64,000 bases of DNA from an uncultured Acholeplasmataceae bacterium (GTDB lineage: Bacteria > Bacillota_I > Bacilli_A > ML615J-28 > CAG-698), in contig CAUTZD010000003.1 in assembly GCA_963542825.1 (NCBI GenBank), positions 6,804 to 70,803 of the forward strand. The letters are read 5' to 3'. How positions within the stretch are numbered: position 1 is the first letter of the stretch; every line of letters starts with the position of its first letter. Made by a program: the position numbers and the translations under genes. Of the stretch, positions 2,990-43,535 are shown in pieces. The notes under the pieces were generated by a model. The model saw only the letters and a list, made by a program, of their open reading frames with translations, was not told where the DNA came from and made no database searches.

Positions 2990-3030
2990 AAAATAGCAGA
3001 TACTTTTTAAAGCATCTGCTATATATTATT
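2990..3030 (-). terminator. Rho-independent terminator after the large lipoprotein gene
   Basis: Inverted repeat agcagat...atctgct followed by a T-run on the minus strand. Confidence 0.6.
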
Positions 3031-5187
3031 TTAGATTTCGCCAGGACAAACAACTACGTATACTGGAAGTTTAAGATCTTTATTTTCGTCTGGCTTGCTT
3101 TCACAAGTAAGACCTTTACGGTGATTGTAATATACTTCACTAACATAACAATAGATGTCTTCTGTAAATTCTTTGCCTATAGGGAATTCGGCAATATTTT
3201 TAAATTTTTTAGGACTAAGGACAAAAGAAACACCATTAAGTGTTACCCGAATATCATGAGTTATACCGTTTTTATCTTTATTATGAGCAACAACTTTAAA
3301 GCCTTTTAAGTTAATACGTTTACCAAGCTGATCAAAAATTGCTTTCTTGATATCGATAGGTTTTGGTTTTTCTGGTATTACATTAGCAAGTTCCTCAGCA
3401 GTAACGTTTGCTACGGTTTCTGGAATTTCAATTCCGTCAGTTTTAGCCTCTTCAGCATTTGCGTACTTTTTGCTAACTTTGGCAGAAGTTAAACGTAAAT
3501 TAATTGTATTGTCGTAGTTTGTACTTAAAAATTTTGTCACACCAAATACAGTTACGATATTGCCAACTTGAACATCATTAAACTCATCGCCATAATTTTC
3601 CACTAGGAATCTTCCGGTTTCATCTTCGATAATCACTGCTTTGAAAGGTTTCATGACAACACGACCAGTAATCTTCGTCCAAATTGTCTTACCAAGCAAT
3701 CCTTTACCAAGTGCTTCTTTATGAGTTTTATAAATTTCGTTAATCTTCAAAGGTTTTGGTTCAAGAACTTTTAGCTTAACAAAACTTTCTTTTTCCTTGT
3801 CGCCTACCTTAACTTTATAACCAAGAGTAACGGGTGTTACTTCTTTTGTTAAAACAACAGTTCCATCATCATTAATTACTGCTTTGTCACTAGAATCAAA
3901 AGTAACAGTGTAATTAATTTTATTATCTTTATTGATTTTGAAAACTAAAGGATTTGTTGGAACTTTTGTATCAGTAACATATTCTGGATATCTTTCTTTG
4001 TAATGTCTTTCAAGAACATAAGCAACATAATCAGCTTTTCTTTGGTTATCCCAAGGTGTGCCATCAATATCAGCATATTTTTTGATAATGTTTGCTTCTA
4101 GTTTTGGATATCCTTCGGGAACGATAGCATCGTCTGGTTTGTCAACAGCTACAAAACGAAAACGTGTTCCGAAGTTGTATGCAATAACAGGTAGTTTATC
4201 GACTTTGTTATTTGTCAAACCATTGTTTTGTGCCATGCCTTTAATTTCTTTGTTTAGTGAAGATTGACTAGCTATTGATACTTTATCAAATGTTTTATTA
4301 TCAAGAACTTCAACCAAATCTTTAGTGTCGTTAGAAGAAGCTAGAATGCCTTTAAGAATGTATGCTCTTCCGTACTCTAGTAAATCTGTATCCCAATCGA
4401 TCTTTGCAAAATCAGAAGGTGTAATTTCCTTAGCACCATCGAAAATGTTTGGTGCCTTTTCGCCTTCAGGAAGGGTAGCAAGTATATCAACAATTCCATC
4501 TTTAATACGCGCAAGCTTATCTTTACTATCGCGTTTACCAATAACAGATACCGTTGTACCAACCGTAATCTTATCAGCTTTTTGGCGTGTCTCAACATAA
4601 AGACGCTTAACAGTTTCATCTACTTTCTGTTCAATAAAGAAAGCCTTAGAATCGTTTTTTTCATATAAAGTGGCAACAACTTTTCCTTCAACGCGGACAA
4701 GTTCATTAGTACCAATACCAATACCTTTAAGAATTTTACTATAATCAGTGGTTAACTCAGGGCGCTTAGCAATTTTTAAATTAAAAGTTCTTTCACCTCT
4801 AAATGATGTGGTTTTGCCTTTTTTGTTAGGGTTAGATACATATTCAAAACGCGCAGTTAAAGTAATTGGTGCGTCTTCTTCGCCATATTTTTTAATGACA
4901 AAGAGCCAAGATGCTTCTTTTATCACATCACGGTCCTTCACGTCTTTGATTTCAACAAGTTCAGGTTTATCGACGCTCCAAACAACATTAATTACTCCAC
5001 TTTCGAGATCAATCTTCCGAGATAATGAAAATTGATCATAAAGACTATTAGGTTTATCGAGACTTTTAACATTAACATATTCATCAATTCTCTTCTCAAC
5101 TGATTTCGCTGTATTTTGACATCCAGCTATTGTTACGCTAACTAAAGCTAAAGCAATAACTGCTAAAAGTTTTCGTAAAAATTTCAT
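3031..5187 (-). CDS. Large surface lipoprotein (718 aa), unknown function, last gene of the ABC/nuclease operon
   Basis: Signal peptide plus lipobox (LVSVTIAGC). Strong RBS AGGAGG 15 nt after the nuclease gene stop. No recognisable catalytic motif. Confidence 0.6.
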   Translation of the reverse strand: MKFLRKLLAVIALALVSVTIAGCQNTAKSVEKRIDEYVNVKSLDKPNSLYDQFSLSRKIDLESGVINVVWSVDKPELVEIKDVKDRDVIKEASWLFVIKKYGEEDAPITLTARFEYVSNPNKKGKTTSFRGERTFNLKIAKRPELTTDYSKILKGIGIGTNELVRVEGKVVATLYEKNDSKAFFIEQKVDETVKRLYVETRQKADKITVGTTVSVIGKRDSKDKLARIKDGIVDILATLPEGEKAPNIFDGAKEITPSDFAKIDWDTDLLEYGRAYILKGILASSNDTKDLVEVLDNKTFDKVSIASQSSLNKEIKGMAQNNGLTNNKVDKLPVIAYNFGTRFRFVAVDKPDDAIVPEGYPKLEANIIKKYADIDGTPWDNQRKADYVAYVLERHYKERYPEYVTDTKVPTNPLVFKINKDNKINYTVTFDSSDKAVINDDGTVVLTKEVTPVTLGYKVKVGDKEKESFVKLKVLEPKPLKINEIYKTHKEALGKGLLGKTIWTKITGRVVMKPFKAVIIEDETGRFLVENYGDEFNDVQVGNIVTVFGVTKFLSTNYDNTINLRLTSAKVSKKYANAEEAKTDGIEIPETVANVTAEELANVIPEKPKPIDIKKAIFDQLGKRINLKGFKVVAHNKDKNGITHDIRVTLNGVSFVLSPKKFKNIAEFPIGKEFTEDIYCYVSEVYYNHRKGLTCESKPDENKDLKLPVYVVVCPGEI

Positions 5188-5202
5188 TTTTCCTCCTTTT
5201 TA

Positions 5203-6597
5203 CTATTTAACTCTTTTAAAATTATTGATAAGATTAAGATCATCTTTCAAAACTTCTTTTACAGGGTCGCCAATTGGTTTGCCATCATTGTCATACTTTT
5301 GAGTTTGTTTTACACGGAAGCATTCTCCCGGTGTTAATTGATATCCTTCTTTTGGTTGTTTAACGATTGCCGCAATAATATCATATTTAACACCTTCTTC
5401 AATTCGAAAGTCTGACCAGTGTAAAGTTTCACCGCCTGCAAGAATTTCATAATCCTGTGTTTTTATTAAATATTGATCCCATTTAGTTTTAATATCGGCA
5501 CCAATATACATATTGAAATCGTTGCCGTCTTTGTCTTTGCATTTGATAATCCAGTAGTAGTTATCGCTGTTCTCCGGCTTCTTGCGAATTATCTCACTTA
5601 CAGTAACACCCTTAAATTTGACAACCCGACCTGCGTATTCTTTAAAATCATCAGATGAAGTAATCACTGGAAACTCAAAATCTTTCATGTTTATCTTGCC
5701 AGTAACAACAGCTTCGGTAACATCGGTAAACTGTGTTCCAAATTCACCTTCGTAATCAAGTTTAGCTTTAACTTTAACCTTATCACCTACGCTTGTAGAA
5801 GCATAGAATCTTTCATCATTAAAGTGACCGTAGAAAAATGCTCCGGCTTTTCCTTTGTGAATTTTTTGTTCACCATTTTCTTCATATGTAAATTCGTCTT
5901 CAATATCCTCAACAAAAACGCCAGTTCCTTTTTTTCGAGTAATTAAACCTTCGATCTCGAAAATAGTTCCTGTTTGCCATTCGTCGCCTTTATCTAAGAT
6001 ATATTTGATTGAACCTTTAATCGTTGTTGTTGCGTAGTTAAAATCAGGATCAGGTTTAGGAGAGTATAGATGAAGTTTTTTACTGCGAGCATATTTATCA
6101 GCTTGAAGCAGTTCCTTACTAAACTCGTCAGCATCACCTCCAAGTTTAGCTTTTGAAAAACCATTCAAAACGATATCAAAGTTTAATAGACGAGGCACTG
6201 TTTCACCTTTAGGGATATACCAAACCCAACCGAGAACCCGCGAACCAGTTGCATCGATTCCGCGACTCTCAACAATAATTTTAGCATCTTTTAAAGCGTT
6301 TTTTGTATAGTCACTAGCCTTCTTACCCCAGGCTTCAACTTTACCAGTTGATTCAGGAGTATCAATACCTAAAAAACGAATCTTATAACTTTTGCCGCTG
6401 CTTGTCACATGAATGGTGTCACCATCCACGTGCTTGGCTAACTCTACTTCGCCAATTGACCCTGCTGTACCATCAAAAACTTGACCAGTATAGTTTTTCT
6501 TAAGCAGAGGGCTCTTTGGCTCTTTGACATTACAACCACCTAAAAGCAGTCCAAGTAGAGCTAGTAGACATAGTTGTAAAAATCTTTTAAATTTCAT
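5203..6597 (-). CDS. Membrane nuclease lipoprotein with a staphylococcal (thermo)nuclease SNase domain
   Basis: Lipobox LLGGC. SNase motif VDGDTIHV...YKIRFLGIDTPE...KKASDY. The start codon overlaps the stop of the upstream binding-protein gene (TAATG). Confidence 0.75.
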   Translation of the reverse strand: MKFKRFLQLCLLALLGLLLGGCNVKEPKSPLLKKNYTGQVFDGTAGSIGEVELAKHVDGDTIHVTSSGKSYKIRFLGIDTPESTGKVEAWGKKASDYTKNALKDAKIIVESRGIDATGSRVLGWVWYIPKGETVPRLLNFDIVLNGFSKAKLGGDADEFSKELLQADKYARSKKLHLYSPKPDPDFNYATTTIKGSIKYILDKGDEWQTGTIFEIEGLITRKKGTGVFVEDIEDEFTYEENGEQKIHKGKAGAFFYGHFNDERFYASTSVGDKVKVKAKLDYEGEFGTQFTDVTEAVVTGKINMKDFEFPVITSSDDFKEYAGRVVKFKGVTVSEIIRKKPENSDNYYWIIKCKDKDGNDFNMYIGADIKTKWDQYLIKTQDYEILAGGETLHWSDFRIEEGVKYDIIAAIVKQPKEGYQLTPGECFRVKQTQKYDNDGKPIGDPVKEVLKDDLNLINNFKRVK

Positions 6598-8273
6598 TAT
6601 TTGGTGCTCTTCTCATGAATTTTCTTAAATTGTTCATTAATTTTCGCTAATTGTTCATTTTCAGGTTTATTAAAAATTTGAAGATCCATCAAAATAGCTT
6701 TTAGATATGTTTCTGAATTAGTTCGAACTTCAGAACTTGTTCCCCAAGCAGGATCAACGAAGAATGTATACTTAACGTTTTGATCTGGACTTTCATAAAA
6801 ATCTTTCATAACGCGAACAACTTCTGTCTTAAGACTTGGTTTTGCTAAAAATTCTTTATATGCAGGAATTTCGTAAACCGACTTACGAACAGGTAAATAA
6901 CCAGTACCCATTGAGAATTTCGCACAGTTTTCTGGCGAAAGAATTGTTTTGATAAACTTCCATGCAAGGTTTCTTTGAAGGTTAGTTCCGGTATTAAACA
7001 TAACAAGGTTAGTTCCTTGCTGAATTACCGTACGCTTATTTTTGTCAGTTCTATATGGAGCTGGAACAACGCCATATTCACCATTAGTATAGTAGTTAGT
7101 ACCACCTGAAGAACCAACATTCAATAGAGTACGACAATTACTTAGTAATGTTGAAGCATATTTTTCTTCCCACTGCTGTGGTACACCAAGTACCGCCTTA
7201 TCAAATAAATTCTTGAAATAAAGAATGGCTTTTTGACTGTCAACATTATCAACATATTTATGAAGACCGCGTTGAACATCGACTTTTCCGTTATTTACAA
7301 TTGCTCCTGTATAAGGGGCATCAGACTGATGCATTGCTGTTGTAAAAAAGTTACCAAGAGAATCATACATTACAGTACGGAAATTTTTGAAAGTTTGCTT
7401 ACCGTTAAAATCTACAAAATTTCCAAACGCTGCGTCAAATTTTTCTTGACCACCAAAATATTCAGGCAAAGATAACTCTGGAACGGGTTTAAGAGAATCG
7501 GCTTTAAGACAATCGTAATATTTCTTTAAAGCCTTAACGATAAAATTAGAGAAATCTTCAATTTCTTCCCAAGTGCGAGGAACTTTGATATGTTTAGCAG
7601 TAAGTTTTCCTTCGCTGTCTCTAACTTCGACTAAGAAGTCTTTAGCTTTTGGAAGATCATCGTCTTCAAATAATTCAGTTTTTAAAGCATTCTTATAATC
7701 GATTGGGAATTGTTCCATGAAATCACGGCGATAATACATAACTTCAGTTGACTTGTTAAATGGAAGTCCATAAATTGTTTCTTTTTCATCGAAGTATCTT
7801 GTTTCTTTTAAATATTCTTGGTTGAAATCGGCGATCTCGTTTTTAATACCGATTTTGCTATCATTAACAAAGCTTGAAAGTTCCTGGATAACACCACTAA
7901 TTAAATATTTAGCGATGTGGTCGGGATAAGCAAGCGATACATGAGGAGCATATTTTCTACTACGTGCATCTTCACGGTTTTTCTTAAGCAAACTGTCATA
8001 ACCTGATTCTTGCTCAAGTTTAACCTCAGCATTATATCCTTCCTTGGCTAATTGTTCATTGAATGGCGCAACAAGTTCTTTCTCAACAACATCATAAATG
8101 TCTTTACCAAAAGAGACGCGGAACTTAATTTGCACTTTACTTTTTTGCTTATTAATTTCTGCTTTTAGATTATCAGCACTTAAAACTGTTAGTTTTTCAA
8201 AGCGCTGACATCCTGCTAAGACTACTGTTAGCACTAAGACTAAAAGTAGACCAAAAAATTTCTTAAATTTCAT
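6597..8273 (-). CDS. ABC transporter solute-binding lipoprotein (family-1 sugar/solute type)
   Basis: Lipobox VVLAGC. 558-aa periplasmic-binding-protein-like sequence immediately downstream of two MalF/MalG-type permeases. Confidence 0.65.
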   Translation of the reverse strand: MKFKKFFGLLLVLVLTVVLAGCQRFEKLTVLSADNLKAEINKQKSKVQIKFRVSFGKDIYDVVEKELVAPFNEQLAKEGYNAEVKLEQESGYDSLLKKNREDARSRKYAPHVSLAYPDHIAKYLISGVIQELSSFVNDSKIGIKNEIADFNQEYLKETRYFDEKETIYGLPFNKSTEVMYYRRDFMEQFPIDYKNALKTELFEDDDLPKAKDFLVEVRDSEGKLTAKHIKVPRTWEEIEDFSNFIVKALKKYYDCLKADSLKPVPELSLPEYFGGQEKFDAAFGNFVDFNGKQTFKNFRTVMYDSLGNFFTTAMHQSDAPYTGAIVNNGKVDVQRGLHKYVDNVDSQKAILYFKNLFDKAVLGVPQQWEEKYASTLLSNCRTLLNVGSSGGTNYYTNGEYGVVPAPYRTDKNKRTVIQQGTNLVMFNTGTNLQRNLAWKFIKTILSPENCAKFSMGTGYLPVRKSVYEIPAYKEFLAKPSLKTEVVRVMKDFYESPDQNVKYTFFVDPAWGTSSEVRTNSETYLKAILMDLQIFNKPENEQLAKINEQFKKIHEKSTK

Positions 8274-8297
8274 TTATACCTCCTTAAAATTTAGAAA

Positions 8298-9257
8298 TTA
8301 TCCTTTAGTTCCACCACGCGTAACTCCACGCATGATATATTTTCTAAGTGTAATAAAAACGATTAAAAGTGGAATTGTTACAAGCATACTCATCGCCATC
8401 CGGAAGTGAAGTGGATCTTTTAAACCGTTTTGGGCGATTTCTCCCGTCATCGGTCTAAAGACACGAATTAAGGCGTTGGATACAAGGAGCATGTTTGGCT
8501 CGTTAGCTACTAAATCTGGCCAAATATAGGCATTCCAAGTTCCCATCATACTAAGGATGAAAACAGTCGTCATCGTTGCTTTTCCAAGCGGAATCATGAC
8601 TTTAAATAAATATTTAAAATCACCACAACCATCAATCTTGGATGCAAAATATAACTCATTAGGAATTTGTTTAAATGTTTGTCGTAAGAAATAAATATAG
8701 AACACACTAACGATAAAAGGCAGTAAGAGTGCCGTATAATGATTTCTTAAATGTAAGCTTGTAATTGTTGAGTAGTTAGTTAAAATGAAGATTTCACCAG
8801 GAACCATCATTGTTCCTAAAAGAATCGTAAATAAAACATTTTTAAGTTTGAAGTTAAGTCGCGCAAACGCAAAAGCTGAAAGTGTTGTCGATATCATCGC
8901 AAACGATGTTGTTAGAAAACCAACCAAAATTGTATTGAAGAACACACGGCCCAAACTAACAGCACCCATCGCTGGCTTAACAGGAAGACCTGCAAGCTCG
9001 TAAGTTCCTTTAGCATATCTTACCGTATCGATAAAGTTTCTAAATTGCCAGTGCTTGGGAAAGAAACTAACTTTTGCACTATTGATTTCTTCAGTTGTCC
9101 GTAGAGCCGTTGCAAACATCCAGTAAAACGGCAAAATGATAAAAATGGCAATGAGGACAAGAAAGGCATAAATTCCAATATTTATTGCCACCGATTTAAC
9201 TTTATAAGCCTTGGCTTTTTTACCTGTTAAATAAAGAGCACGTTCATTTTGATACAT
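8298..9257 (-). CDS. ABC sugar-type permease (MalG-like)
   Basis: Six TM segments. EAA loop ASKIDGCGDFKYLFKVMIPLGK. Confidence 0.8.
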   Translation of the reverse strand: MYQNERALYLTGKKAKAYKVKSVAINIGIYAFLVLIAIFIILPFYWMFATALRTTEEINSAKVSFFPKHWQFRNFIDTVRYAKGTYELAGLPVKPAMGAVSLGRVFFNTILVGFLTTSFAMISTTLSAFAFARLNFKLKNVLFTILLGTMMVPGEIFILTNYSTITSLHLRNHYTALLLPFIVSVFYIYFLRQTFKQIPNELYFASKIDGCGDFKYLFKVMIPLGKATMTTVFILSMMGTWNAYIWPDLVANEPNMLLVSNALIRVFRPMTGEIAQNGLKDPLHFRMAMSMLVTIPLLIVFITLRKYIMRGVTRGGTKG

Positions 9258-9268
9258 AAATTTTCACC

Positions 9269-10291
9269 TTAGTAATGAACCTTTCTTTTGGAAATTTGCT
9301 GCTGAATAACAGTGATAATCATAATGATAATGAAAAGACTAATAGAAGCGGCAGCTGCTCGTGGTTGTCCATTAACCTCATCGCTTCGACCAACCCATTT
9401 ATACACATAGCCAACAATTGTTAAGTATCTATCAGGATTATCATCAGTTCCCATTTTACCGTTAAAGAGTGCCAGTACGCTTGTATACACTTTGAAAGCA
9501 CCAATAAAGGAAGTGATTGAAATATAAGAAATCATTGGTGATAAAAGCGGAACAGTAATCCGCCTAAATACTCTTTCCCGTGGTGTTGAATCGATTTGGG
9601 CTGACTGGTAGTACTGCTTATCAATACTTTGCATACCTGACAAGAATACCATGATCTTAAATGCTAAACCGTGCCATAAAGAGTGAATAATAATAACTAG
9701 AAATCCCGCCATATATTTCGGAATCCGCGATTCGCCGTTATCAAGAATTACCCGGTTAACCCAAGGAATCGCTTCTTTCCCAAGACCAATTCTTAACGAG
9801 TTAATCAAACCGCTTGATGAACCAAAGATTGCCGCAAACGTTAAACCAACGGCAATCGTATTTGTTACATAAGGTAAGAAATAGATTGTCTGGAAAACGC
9901 CTTGACCTTTTTTAATTCCGTTTAAGGCTACGGTAATAAACAAAGCAACCATAATTGTAAGCGGAACGGAAATAACAACAATTAACGCTGTATTCCCAAG
10001 GCTTGTTAAGAAAGTTTTATCTGTCCAAATGTGTTTAAAACTTTCGATACCAATTCCGATTCTAAACGTTGTCTTATTTCCTAAACTGTCGACTGTTTCA
10101 ATGGTTTTCCCAAAATGTTCAAACCAGTTGTAAACAAACGTACTACCTCTTGCAGCTCCATATGTGTATCCATCCATAAAAGCCATTAAGAAAGCTCTGA
10201 TAATTGGATAAATCATAAAAACTGTCGTTAAAAGGAGCGTTGGAAGTAAGACTAAGGTCGCCTTTAAATCGTCCTTTTTATATTCTAACAT
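9269..10291 (-). CDS. ABC sugar-type permease (MalF-like)
   Basis: Polytopic. EAA loop QSAQIDSTPRERVFRRITVPLL. The start abuts the ATPase stop (TAAATG). Confidence 0.8.
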   Translation of the reverse strand: MLEYKKDDLKATLVLLPTLLLTTVFMIYPIIRAFLMAFMDGYTYGAARGSTFVYNWFEHFGKTIETVDSLGNKTTFRIGIGIESFKHIWTDKTFLTSLGNTALIVVISVPLTIMVALFITVALNGIKKGQGVFQTIYFLPYVTNTIAVGLTFAAIFGSSSGLINSLRIGLGKEAIPWVNRVILDNGESRIPKYMAGFLVIIIHSLWHGLAFKIMVFLSGMQSIDKQYYQSAQIDSTPRERVFRRITVPLLSPMISYISITSFIGAFKVYTSVLALFNGKMGTDDNPDRYLTIVGYVYKWVGRSDEVNGQPRAAAASISLFIIIMIITVIQQQISKRKVHY

Positions 10292-12403
10292 TTATAGAAC
10301 CCTTTCACCTGTCTTCTGACTGAAAACATAAAGTTTCTTAAATCCTAGAGAAATTTTTTGACCAACACTTAACTGGCGTCCTTCAGCAACGATAACTCTG
10401 ATTGTTCCTTTTTCCCATTGAGCGGTTAAAGTGATATTTTCTTTAATTGGCTTAATGAAATTGAAGTCTTTTCCATTAAGTGTCCAAGCTCTAAATGAAT
10501 ATCCTGGTCGTCTTGGTAGAATCTTCGGTTCTTCAATTTGTGTTCCCACAGGAACTGTAATTGATGGAACTGGACTTCCACCTTCAACTGCGAAACTAAC
10601 AGTAACCATTTTTGGTGTTTTAGCTTTTGGATCTTTAGGTTCCTCGGAAACAGTTTCTTCAGACTGTTTTTGCTCTTCAAGTTCTAGGGCTTTTAAGGTC
10701 TTCCTCTCAGCAACCTTATCGAAGTTTTCGAAATCACAAATCGCCATCGTATCACGACCAATATGCTCGATATATTTAATGCCTGCTTTCATTGGTCCCT
10801 TTTCATCAATCACAAAGAACTCTGGACGAAGTCCAATAAATACTTCTTGATCATCAGCATCAGCATTTGTTAAAAGTGTGCCATTATTCAAGTAAAGTTT
10901 TTTACCAAGTATATATCCAGCTTGGATATTGATTGGTGGATTACCTAAGAATTTAGCAACAAATAAATTCTTTGGATTATCATAAACGTTTTGTGGTTCA
11001 TCTTCTTGCTGGTGAACACCATAATTCATTAAAACAATCTTATCACTTATACTCATCGCTTCTTCCTGGTCATGAGTAACGAAAATTGTTGTGATACCAG
11101 TAGAATGCTGAATACGGCGAATTTCTTCACGCATCTGCAAACGCAAGCGCGCATCAAGATTACTTAACGGTTCATCAAGAAGCAAAACGCGTGGCTTCTT
11201 AACTAAAGCCCGGGCGATGGCAACACGTTGCTGTTGTCCGCCTGATAGCTGTTGAGGTTTGCGGTCAAGCAAATCGCCAATATGAACAAGCTCTGCCATT
11301 TTCTTCGCCATCTCTAAGGCTTTCTCTTTTGGCACCTTCATATTCTCAAGCGGGAATAAGATGTTTTGTTTAACAGTCATATGCGGATAGAGCGCATAGT
11401 TTTGGAAAACAAGACCAATACCGCGTCTTTCTGGTGGCATTACGGTAACATCTTCTTCATCAAAATAAATCTTCCCATTCGTTGGATTATGTAGTCCTGC
11501 AATCATAAATAGCGTTGTTGACTTACCACATCCTGACGGACCTAAAAGACCAACAAGTTTTCCTGCAGGAATGGAAACGTTGAAATCATTAACAGCAACC
11601 GTTTCCCGTCCTTGCTTATCTGTAAAGACTTTTGTTAATCCTTCCAAACGAACTTCCACGGAATGCATCTTACCTTCGAGAGCTTGCCATAAACTAGCTC
11701 TTTTAGCTAAACTAGGATTTTCGATATGATTTTTGATGCTGATTATTAAATAAGTAAAAGCCTTGAGTTTAAGAATCTTCGTAAAATCTACAATTGTCTC
11801 CGCGTTATAGTCAAGCTTAATATTATCGATAATATTGTAATCAGTAAAAAGCATTTCATTTAACCGGTAAAGAATCGCTTCACTAATAAACTTTAAAGGA
11901 TCGCTCGTTTCAATGCCAAGACCTTCAACAATTTCTTTGGCTTCTTTAATTGTTGGATTCCCTTTAAAACATAACTTGTTTGTAAGCCAAAGAACAGTTT
12001 CTTCTAAATCACGTTCCTCGTTTTCTTTTAAAGGCTTTAAACAATACTTTTCCTTGATTTGATAATTCTCTACCCAAAGAGATTTATCTAGGGTTTTTGA
12101 TTCTTCCTTTGTTTCTTCTGATCCACTTAAAGAAACAATTTTGTTTTTAAGTTCTTCACTGGCATTAAAAAGTATCGCCTCGAATTCATCATTGCTTAGC
12201 AAATCAAGAAACTCTTTAATCTTTTCACCACTAAGGCTATTAATTTCCCGATCTAGCCGCGAAGCAAACTCTGGCTTCATAGCCTCTTGCAAAGCTAATA
12301 ATTTGGCTTTCGATACTTTAGGTTGTTTTTCGTGCCGCCTAAAAAGTCCAAGTAACTCAGAATCAAGGCACGGTTCTAAATTTTGATTTTCCTTATTTTC
12401 CAT
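10292..12403 (-). CDS. MalK/UgpC-type ABC ATPase with a 230-aa N-terminal extension and a Flg_new-like insertion in the C-terminal regulatory domain
   Basis: Walker A GPSGCGKST, signature [15 protein letters not shown], Walker B LLLDEP. The start was reassigned to the ATG at 12401-12403 (RBS AGGAG 7 nt upstream), because the 23 extra N-terminal codons of the tracked ORF are encoded by a terminator hairpin. Confidence 0.8.
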   Translation of the reverse strand: MENKENQNLEPCLDSELLGLFRRHEKQPKVSKAKLLALQEAMKPEFASRLDREINSLSGEKIKEFLDLLSNDEFEAILFNASEELKNKIVSLSGSEETKEESKTLDKSLWVENYQIKEKYCLKPLKENEERDLEETVLWLTNKLCFKGNPTIKEAKEIVEGLGIETSDPLKFISEAILYRLNEMLFTDYNIIDNIKLDYNAETIVDFTKILKLKAFTYLIISIKNHIENPSLAKRASLWQALEGKMHSVEVRLEGLTKVFTDKQGRETVAVNDFNVSIPAGKLVGLLGPSGCGKSTTLFMIAGLHNPTNGKIYFDEEDVTVMPPERRGIGLVFQNYALYPHMTVKQNILFPLENMKVPKEKALEMAKKMAELVHIGDLLDRKPQQLSGGQQQRVAIARALVKKPRVLLLDEPLSNLDARLRLQMREEIRRIQHSTGITTIFVTHDQEEAMSISDKIVLMNYGVHQQEDEPQNVYDNPKNLFVAKFLGNPPINIQAGYILGKKLYLNNGTLLTNADADDQEVFIGLRPEFFVIDEKGPMKAGIKYIEHIGRDTMAICDFENFDKVAERKTLKALELEEQKQSEETVSEEPKDPKAKTPKMVTVSFAVEGGSPVPSITVPVGTQIEEPKILPRRPGYSFRAWTLNGKDFNFIKPIKENITLTAQWEKGTIRVIVAEGRQLSVGQKISLGFKKLYVFSQKTGERVL

Positions 12404-12498: not shown

Positions 12499-12597
12499 CT
12501 ACCCCTTGGTGTCAAATTTCTTAATTTTTTTAAATGAAAAGGTTTTTATCGGCATCGCATTTAATAGCTCAATGTTCTTGCTATAAATCATTCTCAT
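12499..12597 (-). CDS. Candidate 32-codon leader ORF (MRMIYSKNIELLNAMPIKTFSFKKIKKFDTKG)
   Basis: AAGGAG RBS 4 nt before the ATG. It sits between a sigma-A-like promoter and the terminator. Speculative. Confidence 0.3.
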   Translation of the reverse strand: MRMIYSKNIELLNAMPIKTFSFKKIKKFDTKG

Positions 12598-12615: not shown

Positions 12616-12644
12616 ATTATACTATATTTTTGATTTTCTTTCAA
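12616..12644 (-). promoter_or_regulatory. Sigma-A-type promoter (TTGAAA-17-TATAAT) at the recR stop, reading toward the ABC operon
   Basis: -35 TTGAAA (complement of 12639-12644), 17-nt spacer, -10 TATAAT (complement of 12616-12621). Confidence 0.55.
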
Positions 12645-13538: not shown

Positions 13539-16500
13539 TTACTCCTTTCTATCGAAGAAACTGGCAATCACTTCACGAGCTTCTTCGACTTCTGTCTTTT
13601 CCTTTTTAAATTTCGTTAAATCAATCAAACCTTCAAATTTGAATGGTTTGAGAATTGGTTTTTGTGTTCCGTTAGCAAATTGATTACGATAATCTTTGCG
13701 GATTATTTCCCAAACTTCCTGAGGCAAAGCGAGGTACTCATAACCGGCTCCAAGAACCCTATACAAAGCTCCTGTTGCTGTCTCATAAAATTCTGGCTCC
13801 ATCACAAGATTACAATTAGTGATATCACCAAACACAAGAATCATCTTGCCATTATTTGCAGCTACTGGGGTACCATTTTTAAGAATTCTCAGGTTACCAT
13901 TACCAGGAAGCGCGACATCGAAATTAGCTCCAAGGTCGCTTTGGAAAATTGACAACACACGCTTTTTCTCATCACGAGCCTCTTGACTACTAGCATCATT
14001 TAAAATCTTTTCAATGTATTTGATGCTGTATTTTTTATAAAACCACAAATCTTTGTTTTCAATGTTTTCTGGTTTGTTATCGGCAACAATTGTCGAGTTT
14101 GTCTTATCTTTAATAACAAGTTCAGAATTTTTAACTATTGGTTTTACAACTTGTTCTTCTTTTTTATTTTCAAGCTCACGCAAGGCTTCAATTGCCTCTT
14201 GTTTACGGGCTTTGGTTTCTTCAAGTTCTGTTTGAATGCGCTCTTTTTCTTTTTCAAGAACTTCAAGCTTCTCCTGCGTCTCGCGTTCTTTTAAAGCTTC
14301 GACTTCTGCTAGTTCTTGTTTTTTCTTCATAAATTCAGCTTCCTGTTTTTCCTTGATTGCTTTTTCTTTCATCTGAAGAATTTCTTCAGCTTTTCTGATT
14401 TCAGCTTCCCTTTGCTCTTTCTCAAGCTGTTTAAGTTTTAACTCTTTCTCACGAAGTGCATTTTCTTCCTCAATGCGCTTTTGCTTTTCTTCGATAAGGA
14501 GCATTTCTTCTTTGCGCTTGATTTCTTCTAAACGCCGTTTTTCATTAAGGCTTTCTTCGCTAGTTTTACTAAGATCACCAAAATTAACTTTAGGGTCAAC
14601 CGCTTTTTGAAATTCACTCAAATTCTCATATTCATTACCACGATTAACAATTGAAGTTTTCCTTGCTTGTTTTTGCTTGATTGGACTATTATCATAAAGT
14701 TCTCCCGAAGCAAAACGATAAAACTCTTTTTCAAGTTTCTGAATACGTTCAAGTAAATCATCGTCAACTGCTGTATTCTCTCTTGATATCTTTACATTTT
14801 TCAAGTCGTTAAATTTTTCTTCGAGCTCATTAATACGCCCATTATACTTATACGTATTGTTGCTATTTGTTTGAATCTGTGATTTCAAAACAGAAATTTC
14901 TGAAAAAAGTGATTCAACTGTTTCACTGTTTGACGCTTTGCTAGCACCCTCTGTTTTTTGGTAGTCGCGTTCAAACCTACCCTCAAGAATCTCAAGACGC
15001 TTATTTAAAAGTTCAAGCTGATCTAGTTTATCATAAACGCTAGTATCTATTTCTTGAGGTCTAAGTTTCAGTTTACTAAGGTCACTATCAACGCCATATA
15101 CTTTCTTCTCGATGATATCGAATTTCTCTTGAAGTAAACCTACCTTTTTATCGATCAGTTCAACTTCTTCGCTGTTAGCATTCGTTATATTTTCGCCAAT
15201 ACTTCCGCGAGACATATCAAAAATTAACATCTTTTGTTCAAGCTCATCGATGCGCCCCTCAAAATAAGCGTTGTTAATCTTCGGACGATTTTCCTCAGCT
15301 ACTTCAAGTTTATGAAGACTCTCTTTTAGTTTAGGTATTTCAAGTTTGTTTAGTTCCTCAACAATCATTTCAAGTCGGTTTTTAAACTCTTCAATTTCTT
15401 CAGAAGATACCTTGGAACCCGTAGTTAACCCTTCAATATCGAGTTTATTTATTTTTTCTTCTAAAGCATTAAGACGCGATATCGTTTCAATTGTTTCCCC
15501 ACGCGCTTTAATCATTTTAACTAGAGCAATCTCAAAATGAATTCGGGGATTTGGTGTCCTCTTAATTTTATACAAAACCTCACTAAGGATTTCGATAAAA
15601 TAAAAGATTTTCGCTTCGGTCTCGTCTTTTGCAAGTTCAATAAACTTATCATAATCATAGATATGTTTATTTTGAATATCCCGCTCGCCATTCTTATAAA
15701 GAAGCATATCACGGTAAAGTTGTATCAAACCATATATTATCTTTGAGATTTCTTTTCCTTCAGCATAAAGCTCTTCAGCAATCGCTAAAGTCTCTTTAGC
15801 GCCACCCCTTGTAATGCTTGTTGCAAGTTTTACAAGTGCCTGGTATTCAACGTTCCCCGTAACAGAACTAACGTCTGTTATCTCAACTGTATCTCCGGTT
15901 GCATAACTTATAACTTGATCAAGAATACTTAAAGCGTCACGCAAAGCTCCTTCCGATGCTTCAGCAATTGCGATAAGTGCTTCATCAGAAACATTTAAAT
16001 CCTCGTTAACGACAATCAAACGAAGCTTTGTAAAAATCTCGTTAACTGTCAAAATCCGAAAATCAAACCGCTGGCAACGCGAAATGATTGTTTTCGGAAG
16101 TTTTTCAGGCTCGGTAGTTGCTAGAATAAAAATAACGTGTTTTGGCGGTTCTTCTAAAACTTTTAGTAAAGCGTTGAAAGCAGCCTGCGTAAGCATATGT
16201 GCTTCATCAATTATATAAACTTTATAATTAGCAGCAGATGGTAAAAACTGAACTTTTTCTCTGATATCACGAATTTGTTCAACCCCGTTGTTACTCGCGG
16301 CATCAAGTTCAATAACATCTGGGTAAGAACTCTCGGCAATTTCTTTACAACGGTTACACTTACAGCATGGCTCGGAATCGCGCGTATCTTGGCAAACTAA
16401 AGTGGACGCAAAAATACGGGCAACACTTGTTTTCCCGGTTCCGCGTGGTCCCGAAAATAAATAAGCATGCGATATCTTTTGTTGCCCAATTGAGTTTTGT

Positions 16501-18441: not shown

Positions 18442-21390
18442 CTATAAGTAGTATTTTCGATCTTCAAGCCAAACTAAATCAATTTGTTTAGCAGAAATTT
18501 GAATAAGACCAGTTAAATCAAGTAAGTCCATAAACGCAAGTTCAACAAATTCTGGAACATCAATAAATGGATTGCGGTTCTTTTGAATTCCATAAATTCT
18601 GTTATTACGGCTCTTTTCAAACTTATCGACTTTGTCTTGATAACTCCACTTAACAAGATATGAAAACCGCCCCATATATCCTTTTGGTCTATAGTTACCA
18701 TCGTGGTTGTCTTTACCAAGCTTACTAACTTCGTCAGTTAAGATTAACGTTTCTCTATACATAATAAACATATAGAAAAGGATTCGTGCAGCATCGCCTT
18801 TGCAAAGGTCGCCGGGATAAAATCCATATTCTCCATCTTTTCCGCTAGTTAAGTATCCTGTTGTTTGTGGTTTTGGATTTTTTGGATCAACGTATGGATA
18901 GTTGTTTCTTGTTGAATTGATGTTTTTTTCTGCTGCTCTTAAATTGTGGAGATCCGATGCAATGTTTCTTTCTCCAGCACCAACACGCTTAACACCAAGT
19001 CTTGAATTTGGCCATACGTGTTCGCGATTCCAAGGATCTCCCCCTGTCCATTCAGCTTTATAAAGTACCCGGTCATACATACCAAGAACTTTGCCTGGAT
19101 GGTCTGGGTCTTCATCGGTTGTACACAAATCATATCTAACTTCATTATAACTACGTCTTACAAGATTACTAGGGTGCATTAGTTCATTGAGTTTGTCTCG
19201 CAAAGCACTTCCTGTTAAGCCTTTAGTGCCCTGCCAATAAAGGTTAATATTTTCTTCTGATTCAGGTGACATCCCGCCTTGTTTATAAAACTTAAAAGTA
19301 TAATCTCGCGCAACAAAATCAATTTTTTGGTATTTTTTCTGAGTTTCAACATCAACGAATTCGCCTTCACCTTCTTCGTAATAATCGAGGGCATGATCAA
19401 ATTCACTACCATATTTACACTGATACTCTTTAATCAAATCACCAGTTGATTTCTTGAAAGCTATTTTATATACTTTACGTTTATAGTATACTTTCAAAAG
19501 ATTATTAGTTTCAGAAACATTAATAATAAGAATAGCATTGACGTTCAGTTCATCATGCTCAAAACCATCAAACTGCTTAATATCAGCCTGAACTTCTTCG
19601 CCATCCTTATAGTTTACTTTTGTTGTCTTGGTGTCGTCTTTTGTAAAATCAGAATTATCAATATTCTCAAAATAATATTCAGTAGTTACTAAAACTACCT
19701 TTTCCCAGTGTAATGTTATTGTAACGTTTTCTGTTATCGCGTAGCTTTCTGAAACTTGATTCCCGTCAATAAAATAACCAACAAAGCGATAACCAATACG
19801 AATCGTGTTAATGTTAAGTTCGGAAATTTTAGTACCAACCTCAACACGCTTAACGATAGTATTACCATCATAATTATAGTTAATTGTTACATTAACGTAT
19901 TCTTTGGCCTTTTCCCAAACAAGTTTAATTTTGGTATTTACCGATAACGTTAAATCGCCACTAACTTCTTGGTCGTTAATTAGATACTTTTGAATTGTAT
20001 ATCCAGGTCGATTCTCAAACGGAAGATCCTTAATTTTTGTGTATTCTTTAACAGTAACGGTTCTTACAATACCATCATAGTTATAGTCAATTTCAACATT
20101 GATATCGTTAACCTGTAAAGCCCAAATAAGTTTAACAGTTAAGTTTTTTGTAATCATGAAATCAGGATTTTTCCAAATACCATCAACTTCATAACCACGA
20201 TGAACAAAGCCAGCTCTTGTAAACTCACCAAGTTCGCTGAGAGTTGTATCTTCGTTTACTTCTCGTGTTTCTGTGATGCTATCATAACCGTGATCAATTG
20301 TCACTTGATATTTGTTAATAATCTTTTCCCAAATAACTTGGAGTTTAGCATCACTATTAAATGGACTCAAACCGCCAACATATACATCATTAAGTTTATA
20401 ACCAATAATTTTATATCCTTGACGTGGGTCAAGTGTTAGTTCGCCAACAAGCGTTCCTTCGTCAACTACATAATTTTTAACAATGCCGTTATAGTTATAA
20501 TCTACTTCTATTTTGTACTGACGAACAAAAACAACATGGAGTGCTGTTTCTTGTTTGATTTCATAATCATCGGTAAGCTTAACACCATTTAGCGTATAGT
20601 GTGAAAAACGAAAGCCCGGCTTTTCTGGTTTTTCGAGATCACCAATTTTTTTATTACGGTCAATAATTACTGTTTTAAATTCATCAAAAGATAAATAAAT
20701 GAGAACTTTGATTTGCCAAACAACTGTTATTTTAATATTATTTTTAATTTCATAGTCATCAGAAAGAACATTGCCGTCTTCATCAGCAAAATACCCAAAC
20801 ACAAAACCAAGTTTTGTTGGTTTTTTAATTGTGCTGATTTTTGTTCCCCTAGAAACTTCTTCAGTTGTTAGTTCACCATCGTTATCGATTGTTAAAGTAA
20901 CTTTTACAAGTGAATAAACAGGAACAAGATTAAGGTCTTTTTTAACCTTGTCATCTAAACTAATATCTTTGCCTTTTTCATCGCAGAATCCTAAAACGGT
21001 ATTGGTAAAATTAGAAAGTATCTCGCGAAGCGTTTTACCGTGTTCAACTTTATACGTTGTTTGAACACCATTATCAGTAACAGTAATATTATACAATTTA
21101 CCTTTAATTATCTTAACAGTTGTTGAATAACGGTTTCCTTTGAAGAGAATTGTTAGTGTGTGTTCTCCAGCCGCTTTTAACTCCTCAAGATTCGATATCA
21201 CCATATCCTGAGTTAAAGTTTTGGTTTTGGTTTTGCCGTTTTCTTGATACTTTATTGAAATATCAGATAACTTAAAAGTGTTAGCATCATACTCTGCCTG
21301 CTTGTGGATAAAATCAACACGATTACCCCTACAAGCAGCTAGAAAAAAAATACTTAATCCTAATATTAAATAACTAAAAAATTTCTTCAT
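18442..21390 (-). CDS. Surface lipoprotein with multiple Listeria-Bacteroides (Flg_new) repeats and a C-terminal Endonuclease-I-family nuclease domain
   Basis: Lipobox FFLAAC. There are at least five repeats of the form GY[RK]F.GY...G......I..N.T..L.WEK. The C-terminus carries WNREHVWPNS...DLHNLRAAEKNINSTRNN, the hallmark of Endonuclease I (EndA/Vvn/Bsn family). Confidence 0.7.
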   Translation of the reverse strand: MKKFFSYLILGLSIFFLAACRGNRVDFIHKQAEYDANTFKLSDISIKYQENGKTKTKTLTQDMVISNLEELKAAGEHTLTILFKGNRYSTTVKIIKGKLYNITVTDNGVQTTYKVEHGKTLREILSNFTNTVLGFCDEKGKDISLDDKVKKDLNLVPVYSLVKVTLTIDNDGELTTEEVSRGTKISTIKKPTKLGFVFGYFADEDGNVLSDDYEIKNNIKITVVWQIKVLIYLSFDEFKTVIIDRNKKIGDLEKPEKPGFRFSHYTLNGVKLTDDYEIKQETALHVVFVRQYKIEVDYNYNGIVKNYVVDEGTLVGELTLDPRQGYKIIGYKLNDVYVGGLSPFNSDAKLQVIWEKIINKYQVTIDHGYDSITETREVNEDTTLSELGEFTRAGFVHRGYEVDGIWKNPDFMITKNLTVKLIWALQVNDINVEIDYNYDGIVRTVTVKEYTKIKDLPFENRPGYTIQKYLINDQEVSGDLTLSVNTKIKLVWEKAKEYVNVTINYNYDGNTIVKRVEVGTKISELNINTIRIGYRFVGYFIDGNQVSESYAITENVTITLHWEKVVLVTTEYYFENIDNSDFTKDDTKTTKVNYKDGEEVQADIKQFDGFEHDELNVNAILIINVSETNNLLKVYYKRKVYKIAFKKSTGDLIKEYQCKYGSEFDHALDYYEEGEGEFVDVETQKKYQKIDFVARDYTFKFYKQGGMSPESEENINLYWQGTKGLTGSALRDKLNELMHPSNLVRRSYNEVRYDLCTTDEDPDHPGKVLGMYDRVLYKAEWTGGDPWNREHVWPNSRLGVKRVGAGERNIASDLHNLRAAEKNINSTRNNYPYVDPKNPKPQTTGYLTSGKDGEYGFYPGDLCKGDAARILFYMFIMYRETLILTDEVSKLGKDNHDGNYRPKGYMGRFSYLVKWSYQDKVDKFEKSRNNRIYGIQKNRNPFIDVPEFVELAFMDLLDLTGLIQISAKQIDLVWLEDRKYYL

Positions 21391-29498: not shown

Positions 29499-32072
29499 TT
29501 AGATATCGTATTTCGTTAAAATCTGGGCAGGTGTTTTTCTCAATAATACATTAATTGGAATCATCCCCGCAATAGCGTTTACTAAGAAGATACCGCCGAT
29601 TGTTACAACAAGATACCACCATTCGTAAGTGATAACTCCGAGCTTATCAAAGTTAACAGCAAACATATATCCAACTAAAACTCCAGGAATTGAAGTAAGA
29701 AACGTAAGTAGTAACACTTCAACATAGAAAAGTTTCTTACAGTCAAACTTCTTAATACCAATTGCTCTATATACTCCTATCCGGTAAACCTCATCAATTA
29801 AACTACCCCGCATAATAAGAACAAGGAAAAGGAAGCTAAAGCCAATTAGAAGAATCGGCATAATTAATAGTGAATATCTCCCGCTCATTCTTTCGCGGTT
29901 GAGAGCTGTGTTTTTATTTAAAGTGTTAAGATTTTGGGCACTTCTAATATCAAAAGCTTCTTGATAGTTTTTAACGTTATTATAAAATAGTAGTTTGTAA
30001 GGACTATTATCTAAAACCGTATTATAAACTTCAGCCATCGTCTTACGACTGACAACATATTTTTGGCTACTTGAGAATCCAATAACCTCGTATTTCTTGC
30101 CTCGCGGCATTTGATAATAAAGCTTTCCGTCTTCAACTGAAAATTCTGAACCACTAAGATTTTCCTTTATATGGTCAAAATAACCATAGCCGTTACTAAT
30201 TGCTGTTGATAACAAAGGAATAATTATTTTATCAACACCTAAAACCGTTTCCTCTTTATCTAGGTTTACTGTTTCAACCTTTTCGTAGTTAACAAAGTTT
30301 GTCGTAATTGTTTGAAATTTTTTAATGTTTTCAGTAATCGATGAATCAAAAGTTTTAATCTTGTCAGCATCATGAAGTGGATAATAGCTTTCCCCAAGGC
30401 TATTTAAAACTTTAATTGGCTTATTGATTTTTTTCTCATTGATCAAATAAAAGCCTATAGCATTTAGTGGATGAACGAAGAAATAGTAATCATCAATATC
30501 AGAAATACCAACAATTTTTAATTTCTTTCCATCATAGCTATATTCGCTATTTATATATCTATCAAGATAATTTTTCGAATTGAATATTTCTTTTTGCCGG
30601 TTGGCATGCTGCTTTAAGCTTTTTTTCGTTACAACAATTTCGTTATCATTTTCCGGCATTCTTCCAGAGCTTAAAGACTTCGCAATTTTTTCTCTTGAAA
30701 AACCACCAATCTCGTATTTACTGTCTTCAATAGGAACAACAGACCCCTTGATCGTTTCCCGAGTGTCTTCGCCAAAGAAAGTTGTCAGCGATCCAATTGT
30801 TTCTTCATAGCCATACTTATAATCATATGGAGCAATAAAGTTTTCCCCATGAAACTTTTGATTTCTGTCTTTAAGATCTTGTAAACTTTCCGACCCTTCA
30901 TACGCATAAGCACTATCAGCAACGCCTTTATAATTATCAGGCTTTCGGTAAAATACTCCCATTAACGAGCTGACAGCAAAAACAGAAACAAATCCAATAA
31001 ATATGAGTCCAAAATACATGAACTTGCGTCCAAGTTTTGGGAAAAAGATGCGTTTAAGTGCCACTTTGAGAGCTTGGAAAAAACTGATTGCTGAACGTTT
31101 TTTAGTCACTTTTAGTGGCTTCAGAGCAAAATCTTTAACTTCTGATTCTGGCTTTTCAGTTTCCACATGTTCAAGAATCTTAATTGAATTAACTTCGTTT
31201 ACAAGAATTGGCTGAGTGTTCGCATTTTTTAAATCGATATATAGATTACCGTTTTTGGCAATCAAACGAATCTTAACTTTTTCTTCGCCTTCGTGATAGT
31301 ATTCAAGATCGATACTAGGGTTACTAAAACTTGATTTATCAAGCGTATCTAAATAAATGTTGTCGGTATGAAGAAGACTTAGCTTTTTATCTTCAGTGTT
31401 TGCTGCTATAGCTTCTGCCTTACCATCGATCATCTCAACTATATAGTCTGAGTAGAAAAGCCCAAGTTCCTTATTATGAGTAACTAAAATAACTAATCTT
31501 GTTTTACTGACAGCTTTAATGATATCCATAACCATTCGGCTGTTTTTATCGTCAAGGTTTCCTGTTGGTTCATCAGCAAAAATAATATCTGGAGATTTAA
31601 CAATCGCTCTCGCAATTGCTACCCGTTGCTGCTGCCCGCCAGACAGCTGTTTAGCTTTTCGGTGTTCAAATTTTTCAAGACCAACAACTTTCAAAGCTTC
31701 AGTAATTCGCTCTTTTTGTTCTGGTTCTGGAACTCTTAAAATATCAAGAACGATTCGCAAATTATCATAAACCGTCTCATCGTTTAAAAGAACATAATTT
31801 TGAAAAACATATCCGATATGCGATATCCTTAGGTTATCCCACTTATTAGCCTGGTATCTTTTGAACATGGCATTATCAATTTCAATAATCCCTGAAGAGT
31901 TTTTATCAAGTCCAGATAGCACATTTAAAAATGTTGTCTTACCACATCCTGATGGACCCATCAAACAAACAAGACCGGTTTCAGGAAACTCCATATTAAT
32001 ATTGTTGAGAGCGTGGACTTCGTTCGCTTTGTTTTTATTAAAAAATTTATTTATCGCATGTACTTTAATCAT
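29499..32072 (-). CDS. ABC transporter ATP-binding/FtsX-type permease fusion (MacB-like topology)
   Basis: N-terminal ABC ATPase ([33 protein letters not shown]), then TM1, a roughly 350-aa extracytoplasmic domain and three C-terminal TM helices. Confidence 0.8.
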
Positions 32073-32074
32073 CG

Positions 32075-38096: not shown

Positions 38097-38097
38097 T

Positions 38098-39048: not shown

Positions 39049-39362
39049 CTAATTTTCTTAATAAGACCTAATAAATCCTCTTTTTTCGCGAGAAATTCAC
39101 TTTCCAGTGCTTTTTCTCTAACCACTATTAGCATTTGATAGCTCGGCATTTGTTTGACTAGAGGGCGTAAAATTTCCTTAACCACCCGCTTCTCATAATT
39201 CCTAATATTAGCCTTACCAAGCTTCTTTGAAACCGAAACTGCAAGTTTAAATCTTTCATGCTTATAGTAATAAACAATATAGTTATCAGAGTAAAGACGT
39301 TTCTTCTTGCCGACAAGTGTGGCAATATCCTCGTTTTTTTTAATGATGTATTCTTTTTCCAA
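39045..39362 (-). CDS. rnpA: Ribonuclease P protein component
   Basis: 105 aa basic protein. Lies between rpmH and yidC. Confidence 0.85.
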   Translation of the reverse strand: MEKEYIIKKNEDIATLVGKKKRLYSDNYIVYYYKHERFKLAVSVSKKLGKANIRNYEKRVVKEILRPLVKQMPSYQMLIVVREKALESEFLAKKEDLLGLIKKIR

Positions 39363-43533: not shown

Positions 43534-43535
43534 TA

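Follow-up and report, generated by a model that had tools for sequence, protein, structure and literature searches.

A conserved six-gene operon of an Acholeplasmataceae bacterium predicted to capture and cleave extracellular nucleic acid and to import the products

The stretch of DNA analysed in the present study (the window) comprises 64,000 nucleotides of contig CAUTZD010000003.1 (assembly GCA_963542825.1, positions 6,804 to 70,803) of an uncultured Acholeplasmataceae bacterium. Its minus strand carries an operon of six genes that encode, in this order, the ATPase and two permeases of an importer of the ATP-binding cassette (ABC) type, a solute-binding lipoprotein, a lipoprotein with a staphylococcal nuclease (SNase) domain and a lipoprotein of 718 amino acids (aa), designated LP6. 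The general function of this module is quite likely the harvesting of nucleic acids together with the uptake of their products. The combined statement, according to which the module captures and cleaves extracellular nucleic acid and imports phosphorylated products, appears rather probable; phosphorylated products as the cargo, taken separately, are proposed tentatively. The original prediction, made from the DNA letters, had already described a surface SNase lipoprotein and an ABC importer that jointly harvest breakdown products. This core is supported by the grouping of the binding protein, the intact catalytic residues of the nuclease, the linkage of the genes in 54 of 63 loci and the links published for Mycoplasma and Izemoplasmatales. 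Wall-less bacteria and their relatives are often unable to make nucleotides and live on external nucleic acids. The transporter involved, and the chemical form in which the products are taken up by wall-less bacteria, are a standing question.

The following course of events can be proposed. LP6, with two oligonucleotide/oligosaccharide-binding (OB) folds spaced by immunoglobulin (Ig)-like domains, would hold DNA or RNA at the membrane surface, and the SNase lipoprotein, which has a predicted OB fold of its own, would cut the nucleic acid so held. The binding lipoprotein would take 3′-mononucleotides and/or dinucleotides and pass them to the two permeases, with the import driven by the ATPase. 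Enzymes resembling NrnA and SurE, encoded elsewhere in the window, could complete the breakdown intracellularly. That LP6 binds DNA, that the nuclease is active and, most of all, which molecule is transported are points that we infer.

Open reading frame (ORF) calling with the standard bacterial code revealed six consecutive ORFs of the minus strand between positions 3031 and 12472. The ATPase ORF comprises 726 aa, the permeases 340 and 319 aa, the binding protein 558 aa and the SNase protein 464 aa. The genes are closely packed: the ATPase and permease 1 genes meet at TAAATG without a gap, the two permease genes are separated by 11 nucleotides (nt), and permease 2 and the binding protein gene are separated by 24 nt containing GGAGG. 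The stop codon of the binding protein gene overlaps the start codon of the nuclease gene by 1 nt (TAATG), and 15 nt, again containing GGAGG, lie between the nuclease gene and the LP6 gene. All three extracytoplasmic proteins possess lipoboxes (LAGC in the binding protein, LGGC in the nuclease, IAGC in LP6). The ATPase start at position 12403 is preferred to the ATG of the longest ORF at 12472, because an AGGAG ribosome-binding site lies upstream of it at a suitable distance (6 nt), and because the alternative ATG falls within a hairpin. The tight six-gene operon, the TAATG overlap and the start at 12403 had all been proposed in the original prediction, and the ORF coordinates, the short gaps, the terminator and the ribosome-binding site agree with it. 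None of the six ORFs requires TGA to be read as tryptophan, and all are intact under table 11; therefore, the organism is not a mycoplasma using genetic code 4.

The distribution of the module was assessed by a genome scan that confirmed 345 matching stretches. The best 79 of these 345 loci were kept, and profiles of each of the six proteins were scanned against all their ORFs. For the linkage count, species-level loci were used that extend 3.5 kb or more 3′ of the binding protein gene, 63 in all. The SNase gene was found in 57 of the 63 loci, the last lipoprotein in 59, and both in 54; the SNase gene directly adjoins the binding protein gene in 51. The gene order is also the same in 54 of the 63 loci, often at the same chromosomal site. 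The carriers belong to Acholeplasmatales (including Acholeplasmataceae), Izemoplasmatales, Anaeroplasmataceae, Haloplasma, Erysipelotrichales and metagenome bins of Bacilli, and they include free-living and environmental lineages (from digesters, sediments and seeps) as well as gut lineages. Acholeplasma equifetale and Haloplasma contractile, both cultivable, are among them. With the exception of one sister strain showing 97% identity, the binding protein homologs are 26–36% identical to the protein of the window. Chance is far from sufficient to account for this gene arrangement.

The closest relatives have the operon at the same site as the window, between dnaX-ybaB-recR and rnmV-ksgA; in the window, one flank consists of recR/ybaB/dnaX and the opposite flank of rnmV/ksgA/ispE. 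The GC content of the operon agrees with that of the surrounding DNA. The conserved neighbourhood and the matching GC content indicate that the operon is an old, vertically inherited chromosomal unit and not an island, and a recent horizontal acquisition is rejected on their account.

The persistence of the linkage also bears on the supposition that the nuclease and the OB-fold lipoprotein serve mainly defence or colonisation, acting on host DNA traps or biofilm DNA or as cytotoxic factors, and stand next to a transporter incidentally. Homologs in Mycoplasma are indeed cytotoxic or degrade neutrophil extracellular traps (PMC9740415). However, the linkage is kept in free-living, environmental and gut lineages, with translational coupling and across a divergence that reaches down to 26–36% identity, and such persistence is hard to explain unless the function is shared. 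A role mainly in defence or colonisation is considered highly improbable.

As regards the cargo, the binding protein is the key question. A profile was built from 25 members of its family and searched against the PDB. The 7C0F–7C19 series of structures was found first (E 5e-40). UgpB structures came next (1e-31 to 1e-27), including UgpB of E. coli (3e-31), that of M. tuberculosis (1e-27) and one of marine origin. True sugar binders appeared at E values of 4.5e-18 or weaker, and the best of them covered only a part of the profile. The entry 7C0F is the uridylyl-3′-5′-phosphoguanosine (U3G) binding protein of Thermus thermophilus (PMC12718374, supplementary Table S5). In a Foldseek search with the AlphaFold model of the binding protein (predicted local distance difference test, pLDDT, 85.9), the top 25 chains were “dinucleotide-binding protein” with uridylyl-3′-5′-phospho-guanosine (E ~1e-22, template modelling (TM) score 0.78–0.80, target-normalised), and UgpB came next. 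By profile and by modelled fold, the predicted binding protein is a member of the organophosphate branch of a sugar-type family. A plain maltose or oligosaccharide transporter is rejected, since the oligosaccharide binders trail the organophosphate binders by 20 orders of magnitude or more, and the best of them cover the profile partially. The profile search, which the original prediction had proposed as a check, placed the protein with the U3G binder and UgpB, not with oligosaccharide binders. The description of the transporter as a sugar type holds at the level of the CUT1 superfamily and fails at the level of the branch, where the phosphate-binding residues are retained.

The residues of the Thermus protein that were mutated according to the titles of the PDB entries (Y56, F79, N81, S127, Y224, T240, Y246 and Q274) were taken as the pocket reference, with their contact to the ligand read from these titles. 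Their counterparts in the window protein are, in the same order, Y92, Y116, D118, S175, a position that does not align, S388, Y394 and Q419. Four of the seven aligned positions are identical in the window protein (Y92, S175, Y394, Q419) and three are similar (Y116, D118, S388); six of the seven are invariant in all 25 family members. The counterpart of Thermus N81 is the invariant aspartate D118, which stands beside an invariant histidine. The predicted phosphate ligands Y92, S175, S388 and Y459, as well as R517, are also present in 25 of 25 members. Two tyrosines and two serines contacting phosphate are conserved in UgpB, in the glycerophosphocholine (GPC) binder and in the U3G binder, but not in glucose binders (PMC12718374). 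Trp169 and Trp172, which form the glycerol clamp of E. coli UgpB, are missing; the aligned residues are G307 (G, A, S or D in the family) and F310. Meanwhile, Y394 and Q419 are common to the window protein and the dinucleotide binder and are absent from UgpB. Given the invariant phosphate ligands, the absence of the tryptophan clamp and the residues Q419 and Y394 in common with the dinucleotide binder, the pocket looks suited to a ligand that bears a phosphate and exceeds glycerol phosphate in size.

The same comparison makes it necessary to weigh an ordinary Ugp importer of sn-glycerol-3-phosphate or glycerophosphodiesters, of which the nuclease and the OB lipoprotein would merely be companions in a set for scavenging phosphate and phospholipids. 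The best NCBIfam models of all four transporter parts are UgpC, UgpA, UgpE and UgpB, the UgpB structures are the second-best relatives in the PDB, and the phosphate ligands and the arginine are held in common with UgpB. Like UgpBAEC of E. coli and M. tuberculosis, the importer has the four-component CUT1 architecture. Unlike these systems, it misses every curated equivalog cut-off (UgpB 36 against 411 bits, UgpA 67 against 335, UgpE 113 against 297, UgpC 333 against 432), lacks the tryptophan clamp and has a nuclease and an OB-fold protein as partners in place of a phosphodiesterase: no glpQ or ugpQ was found among the called genes of five loci, whereas the SNase gene accompanies the transporter in nearly all of the loci counted above. 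Together with the match of Q419 and Y394 to the dinucleotide binder, this makes an ordinary Ugp importer quite unlikely.

It is also conceivable that the products are imported in dephosphorylated form, as nucleosides, nucleobases or deoxyribose, after the action of a separate surface phosphatase. The membership of the transporter in the CUT1 “sugar” superfamily is compatible with such a cargo. An inference from genomic neighbourhoods has been published in this sense for the loci of Izemoplasmatales (PMC8289736), and charged nucleotides are generally thought to be seldom imported whole (PMC6609329). On the other hand, no nucleotidase or phosphatase gene is present in the operon, either here or in the loci of five relatives with called genes, and the four phosphate-coordinating tyrosines and serines, reported to be absent from glucose-binding proteins (PMC12718374), are kept. 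The import of dephosphorylated products is regarded as unlikely, and nucleotides or dinucleotides seem likelier than the nucleoside or deoxyribose cargo of the original prediction, given that the phosphate-binding residues of the pocket are kept. To our knowledge, the known nucleoside ABC importers use a binding protein of another family (the BmpA/PnrA type).

The fifth gene product is an SNase-domain lipoprotein, as foreseen in the original prediction. The PF00565 domain scored 42.5 bits against a cut-off of 21 (aa 72–178), and structures of the S. aureus nuclease align over aa 52–180. The Ca2+ ligands D21, D40 and T41 of the staphylococcal enzyme correspond to D60, D79 and T80, and the catalytic residues R35, E43 and R87 to R74, E82 and R120. 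In 55 orthologs, these positions are at least 90% conserved, except for that of D40 (D79), which is occupied by D or N. The C-terminal 280 residues are conserved over their full length, with 37% identity to the ortholog of locus L001, and alignment of the nuclease family with the OB profile of LP6 gave an hhalign probability of 95.7% (E 1e-8, aa 187–298), which suggests an OB fold next to the catalytic domain. SNase-type enzymes (EC 3.1.31.1) release nucleoside 3′-phosphates and short 3′-phosphorylated oligonucleotides. The combination of an OB fold with SNase domains on a surface-anchored protein is found in the YhcR-type surface nucleases of Bacillus subtilis; YhcR is anchored by sortase, also contains a 5′-nucleotidase domain and is encoded outside any ABC importer operon.

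Further genes of nucleic acid metabolism were detected in the window. A lipoprotein of 982 aa (18442–21390, minus strand, lipobox FLAAC) comprises about eight Flg_new-like repeats and a C-terminal Endonuclease_1 domain (PF04231); it lies 6 kb away from the operon and is predicted to be another surface nuclease. Three consecutive genes of the plus strand (55439–58564) encode a DHH/DHHA1 phosphoesterase of 490 aa anchored in the membrane, an NrnA-like protein of 320 aa that is also of the DHH/DHHA1 type, and a SurE 5′/3′-nucleotidase (237 aa, no signal peptide). The cytoplasmic enzymes of this cluster could degrade imported dinucleotides and 3′-nucleotides, which offers circumstantial support only.

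LP6 had been described as a lipoprotein without a recognisable domain. Indeed, Pfam at normal thresholds found no domain, a direct PDB search gave no match, and a word-indexed search returned only the 97% twin, a four-member alignment bringing one more weak match. The orthologs, 55 in number, were collected from the neighbouring genes in the fetched loci, LP6 being collinear with the sixth gene of the relatives’ loci, and the profiles made from them revealed an Ig domain of the aBig_2 type and two candidate OB folds. When 34 orthologs were scanned singly, aBig_2 was found in 32, BOF in 11, the lamin-tail domain (LTD) in 10 and the tRNA_anti-codon OB domain in eight (best E 9e-11). The family has a repeat unit, V.V.G.V....G..v.D.TG.i.VY......G..V.V.G....Y, and the repeat profile matched only OB-fold proteins in the PDB, namely YgiW (2.5e-6), archaeal RPA14, STN1, RPA32 and SOSS-B1. 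The scores of the two OB folds in LP6, listed in Table 1, were obtained with a profile rebuilt without the window’s own sequences; two control proteins, the binding protein and the ATPase, scored no more than 0 bits with this profile. It is probable that LP6 is a surface catcher of nucleic acid.

Related loci show variations of the lipoprotein part of the module. In loci of the Acholeplasma, Mariniplasma and Izemoplasmatales type (L032, L036, L043, L049, L056, L057, L071, L078 and others), the OB lipoprotein comprises 970–1860 aa, permease 2 is longer (about 470–530 aa), as is the binding protein (mostly 630–675 aa), and many of these loci possess a second SNase gene downstream. In the lineage of L005, L006 and L019, the OB lipoprotein also contains a lamin-tail domain and is followed by an additional binding protein (745–752 aa, positions 13827–16085) to which Flg_new and Big_3 domains are fused.

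One of the closest published counterparts is the “putative nucleotide transporter operon” of Mycoplasma, which comprises the P80/MslA lipoprotein, an SNase lipoprotein and an ABC importer, and whose MslA binds DNA (PMC3585158, PMC4045577). MAG_5030 (P80) is co-transcribed with MAG_5040 (SNase) and with three ABC genes, and the same import model was proposed for them (PMC3585158) and repeated in reviews (PMC9740415, PMC12115388). The Mycoplasma SNase lipoproteins considered in the comparison are Mhp379, MAG_5040, MGA_0676, Mpn133 and MG_186. Both operons unite an SNase lipoprotein, a lipoprotein of the binding type and a CUT1/Ugp-like importer, and share the proposed logic of binding, cutting and importing. 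They differ in gene order: in Mycoplasma the lipoproteins come first (lipoprotein, nuclease, ATPase, permeases; PMC3585158), whereas in the window the ATPase and the permeases do. In addition, the window organism reads TGA as a stop codon, and its operon has an extra Ig/OB lipoprotein and an OB fold on the nuclease. DNA binding is assigned in Mycoplasma to the binding-protein-like MslA itself, whereas in the window it is proposed for LP6.

In the DNA degradation loci of Izemoplasmatales, nucleases are accompanied by an ABC transporter, the binding protein of which occurs together with nucleases, and by a large protein that possesses lamin-tail domains and domains for binding nucleic acid (Wasmund et al. 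2021, PMC8289736). A cultured isolate of Izemoplasmatales growing on DNA up-regulates a cluster of EddB, thermonuclease and ABC transporter genes (Zheng et al. 2021, PMC8397711), a possible counterpart of the module. The common trait is the association of an extracellular nuclease, an ABC transporter and a large surface protein predicted to bind nucleic acid. Within the present set, the Izemoplasmatales loci L028 and L074 possess the module; in L074 there is an additional SNase gene. Unlike the window operon, the published loci add phosphohydrolases, 3′-5′ nucleases and a Pst phosphate transporter, and the OB lipoprotein of the window has neither a lamin-tail nor a nuclease domain.

Among solved structures, the Thermus U3G binder stands closest to the binding protein by profile and by fold, and the two share the motifs PFNKS, QGTN and TGY(L/V)PV. 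The window protein exceeds the Thermus protein by 150 aa and has insertions around residues 185–300. In the Thermus protein, U3G was present as an endogenous ligand, and the physiological significance of this is in turn unsettled.

Several observations weigh against the proposed harvest and import of phosphorylated products. The identity of the binding protein to the Thermus protein is about 17–18%, and one of the eight pocket residues, Y224, lies in a region without alignment. UgpB has identical phosphate ligands, which leaves room for glycerophosphodiesters. The OB scores of LP6 are modest (about 19–20 bits), and the AlphaFold2 model made from three sequences has a mean pLDDT of 33.8 and is unusable, so that the assignment of the fold rests on profiles. 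OB folds may also bind oligosaccharides or proteins. Relaxed Pfam scans for the MG185/P80 families (PF03305/PF03202) gave one weak PF03305 match in 25 members (E 0.052); this is insufficient, and homology to Mycoplasma MG185/P80 is not claimed. Finally, Wasmund et al. named the homologous transporters of Izemoplasmatales “probable nucleoside or nucleobase transporters” and held that nucleotides need dephosphorylation before uptake (PMC8289736), whereas nucleotides are favoured here.

The link between nuclease and transporter is already published for Mycoplasma and Izemoplasmatales. What is new is the breadth and the fixed order of the six-gene core, the presence of predicted OB folds in both accessory lipoproteins, and the finding that the binding protein falls in the organophosphate/dinucleotide branch, contrary to the published suggestion of nucleosides or nucleobases. 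The pairing of nuclease and transporter familiar from pathogenic mycoplasmas appears as an old, vertically inherited six-gene unit, in free-living, gut and sediment lineages alike. The uptake of intact mononucleotides was reported for Mycoplasma mycoides in the 1980s with no gene assigned (Breuer et al., PMC6609329), and the module is a reasonable candidate for the gene set behind it. The most far-reaching version, in which intact 3′-monophosphates and/or dinucleotides enter through a Ugp-like ABC importer that explains the M. mycoides uptake, is possible and at present rather doubtful; if true, this would be the first nucleotide/dinucleotide ABC importer with a defined function, and it would be ancestral to the wall-less lineage as a whole. 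Should nucleotides indeed be the cargo, those models of DNA turnover in sediment and gut that assume dephosphorylation before uptake would need adjusting. The features of the operon and of its surroundings are collected in Table 1.

Table 1. Positions of the operon genes, their predicted domains and the associated signals in the window
Feature	Position	Strand	Basis
ABC ATPase, UgpC/MalK-like core aa 271–590 of the 726-aa ORF	10292..12403	-	Pfam ABC_tran; UgpC model 333 bits
Orphan N-terminal ATPase extension, ~247 aa	11663..12403	-	no Pfam domain
ATPase insertion of ~100 aa with Flg_new (Listeria-Bacteroides repeat), C-terminal regulatory domain	10397..10705	-	E 2e-9
Permease 1, UgpA/MalF-like	9269..10291	-	Pfam BPD_transp_1
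Permease 2, UgpE/MalG-like	8298..9257	-	Pfam BPD_transp_1
CUT1-family solute-binding lipoprotein, UgpB/dinucleotide-binder branch	6597..8273	-	Pfam SBP_bac_8, profile, fold
SNase lipoprotein, 464 aa	5203..6597	-	Pfam PF00565, lipobox LGGC
Predicted SNase catalytic domain, aa 48–181	6055..6456	-	catalytic/metal residues aligned to staphylococcal nuclease
Predicted OB-fold domain of the nuclease, aa 187–298	5704..6039	-	hhalign against the LP6 OB profile
LP6, 718-aa lipoprotein, divergent member of an Ig (aBig_2) + OB-fold surface family	3031..5187	-	collinear with orthologs
Predicted first OB-fold domain of LP6, aa 159–233	4489..4713	-	19.9 bits
aBig_2-like Ig domain of LP6, aa 425–475, sub-threshold in this copy	3763..3915	-	E 0.022
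Predicted second OB-fold domain of LP6, aa 499–553	3529..3693	-	18.7 bits
Intrinsic terminator closing the operon	2993..3022	-	13-bp stem hairpin, then T-run
Terminator-like hairpin and T-run, ~37 nt 5′ of the ATPase start codon	12440..12470	-	fold z = -2.8
Small ORF of 32 aa (strong ribosome-binding site), within the leader that separates recR from the ATPase gene	12499..12597	-	
Promoter-like site TTGAAA-17-TATAAT (11/12) at the recR 3′ end; possible operon promoter	12616..12644	-	consensus match only

The ATPase and the permeases are of the CUT1 (MalFGK/UgpAEC) type. The ATPase is unusually composed: it has 703–726 aa versus 348–463 aa for the complete ATPase ORFs of the other loci. The difference includes an N-terminal extension and an insertion that, among the best 79 of the 345 loci, are confined to this species and its 97% sister strain. 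A search of 1.84 billion proteins with the extension gave one marginal match. Since both segments are kept in the sister strain with mostly synonymous changes (synonymous to non-synonymous 14:10 in the extension and 5:1 in the Flg_new insertion), they are real coding sequence. The origin of the extension as a fused copy of the upstream small gene was considered and rejected, there being no similarity to the small ORF that the relatives have at this place. The Flg_new repeat, normally of the extracellular type, sits inside the cytoplasmic regulatory domain of the ATPase. In four other loci (L051, L066, L072 and L076), the same domain has an insertion elsewhere; it comprises about 90 aa and differs from that of the window. 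The regulatory domain seems to be a hot-spot for lineage-specific insertions, because separate lineages insert at different positions in it.

The leader of the operon is near-identical in the sister strain (locus L007). The relatives have an ORF of 81–83 aa where the leader of the window has the 32-aa ORF. Promoter-like matches are no more frequent across the region than in shuffled sequence. The fold of the leader is only mildly stabler than the shuffled controls, and the hairpin in front of the ATPase gene may terminate the recR unit or serve as an attenuator, the latter being speculation. A riboswitch is unsupported, as the Rfam scan of the leader matched no family and the stability of the fold is only mild.

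The operon lies 28–37 kb from the replication origin and is transcribed co-directionally with replication. The origin region (37491–47604) contains jag and yidC on the minus strand, dnaA (40831–42300, plus strand) and dnaN (42375–43502, plus strand), followed by a parA-like gene and recF; the GC skew switches its sign between 40 and 46 kb. Two neighbouring genes at 29499–34456 (minus strand) encode large proteins (857 and 793 aa), each with an ABC ATPase domain at the N-terminus, and in the first of them this domain is fused to an FtsX-like permease domain. Next to them, a Fic/DOC family protein of 227 aa (34679–35362) is encoded on the plus strand, opposite to most of its neighbours.

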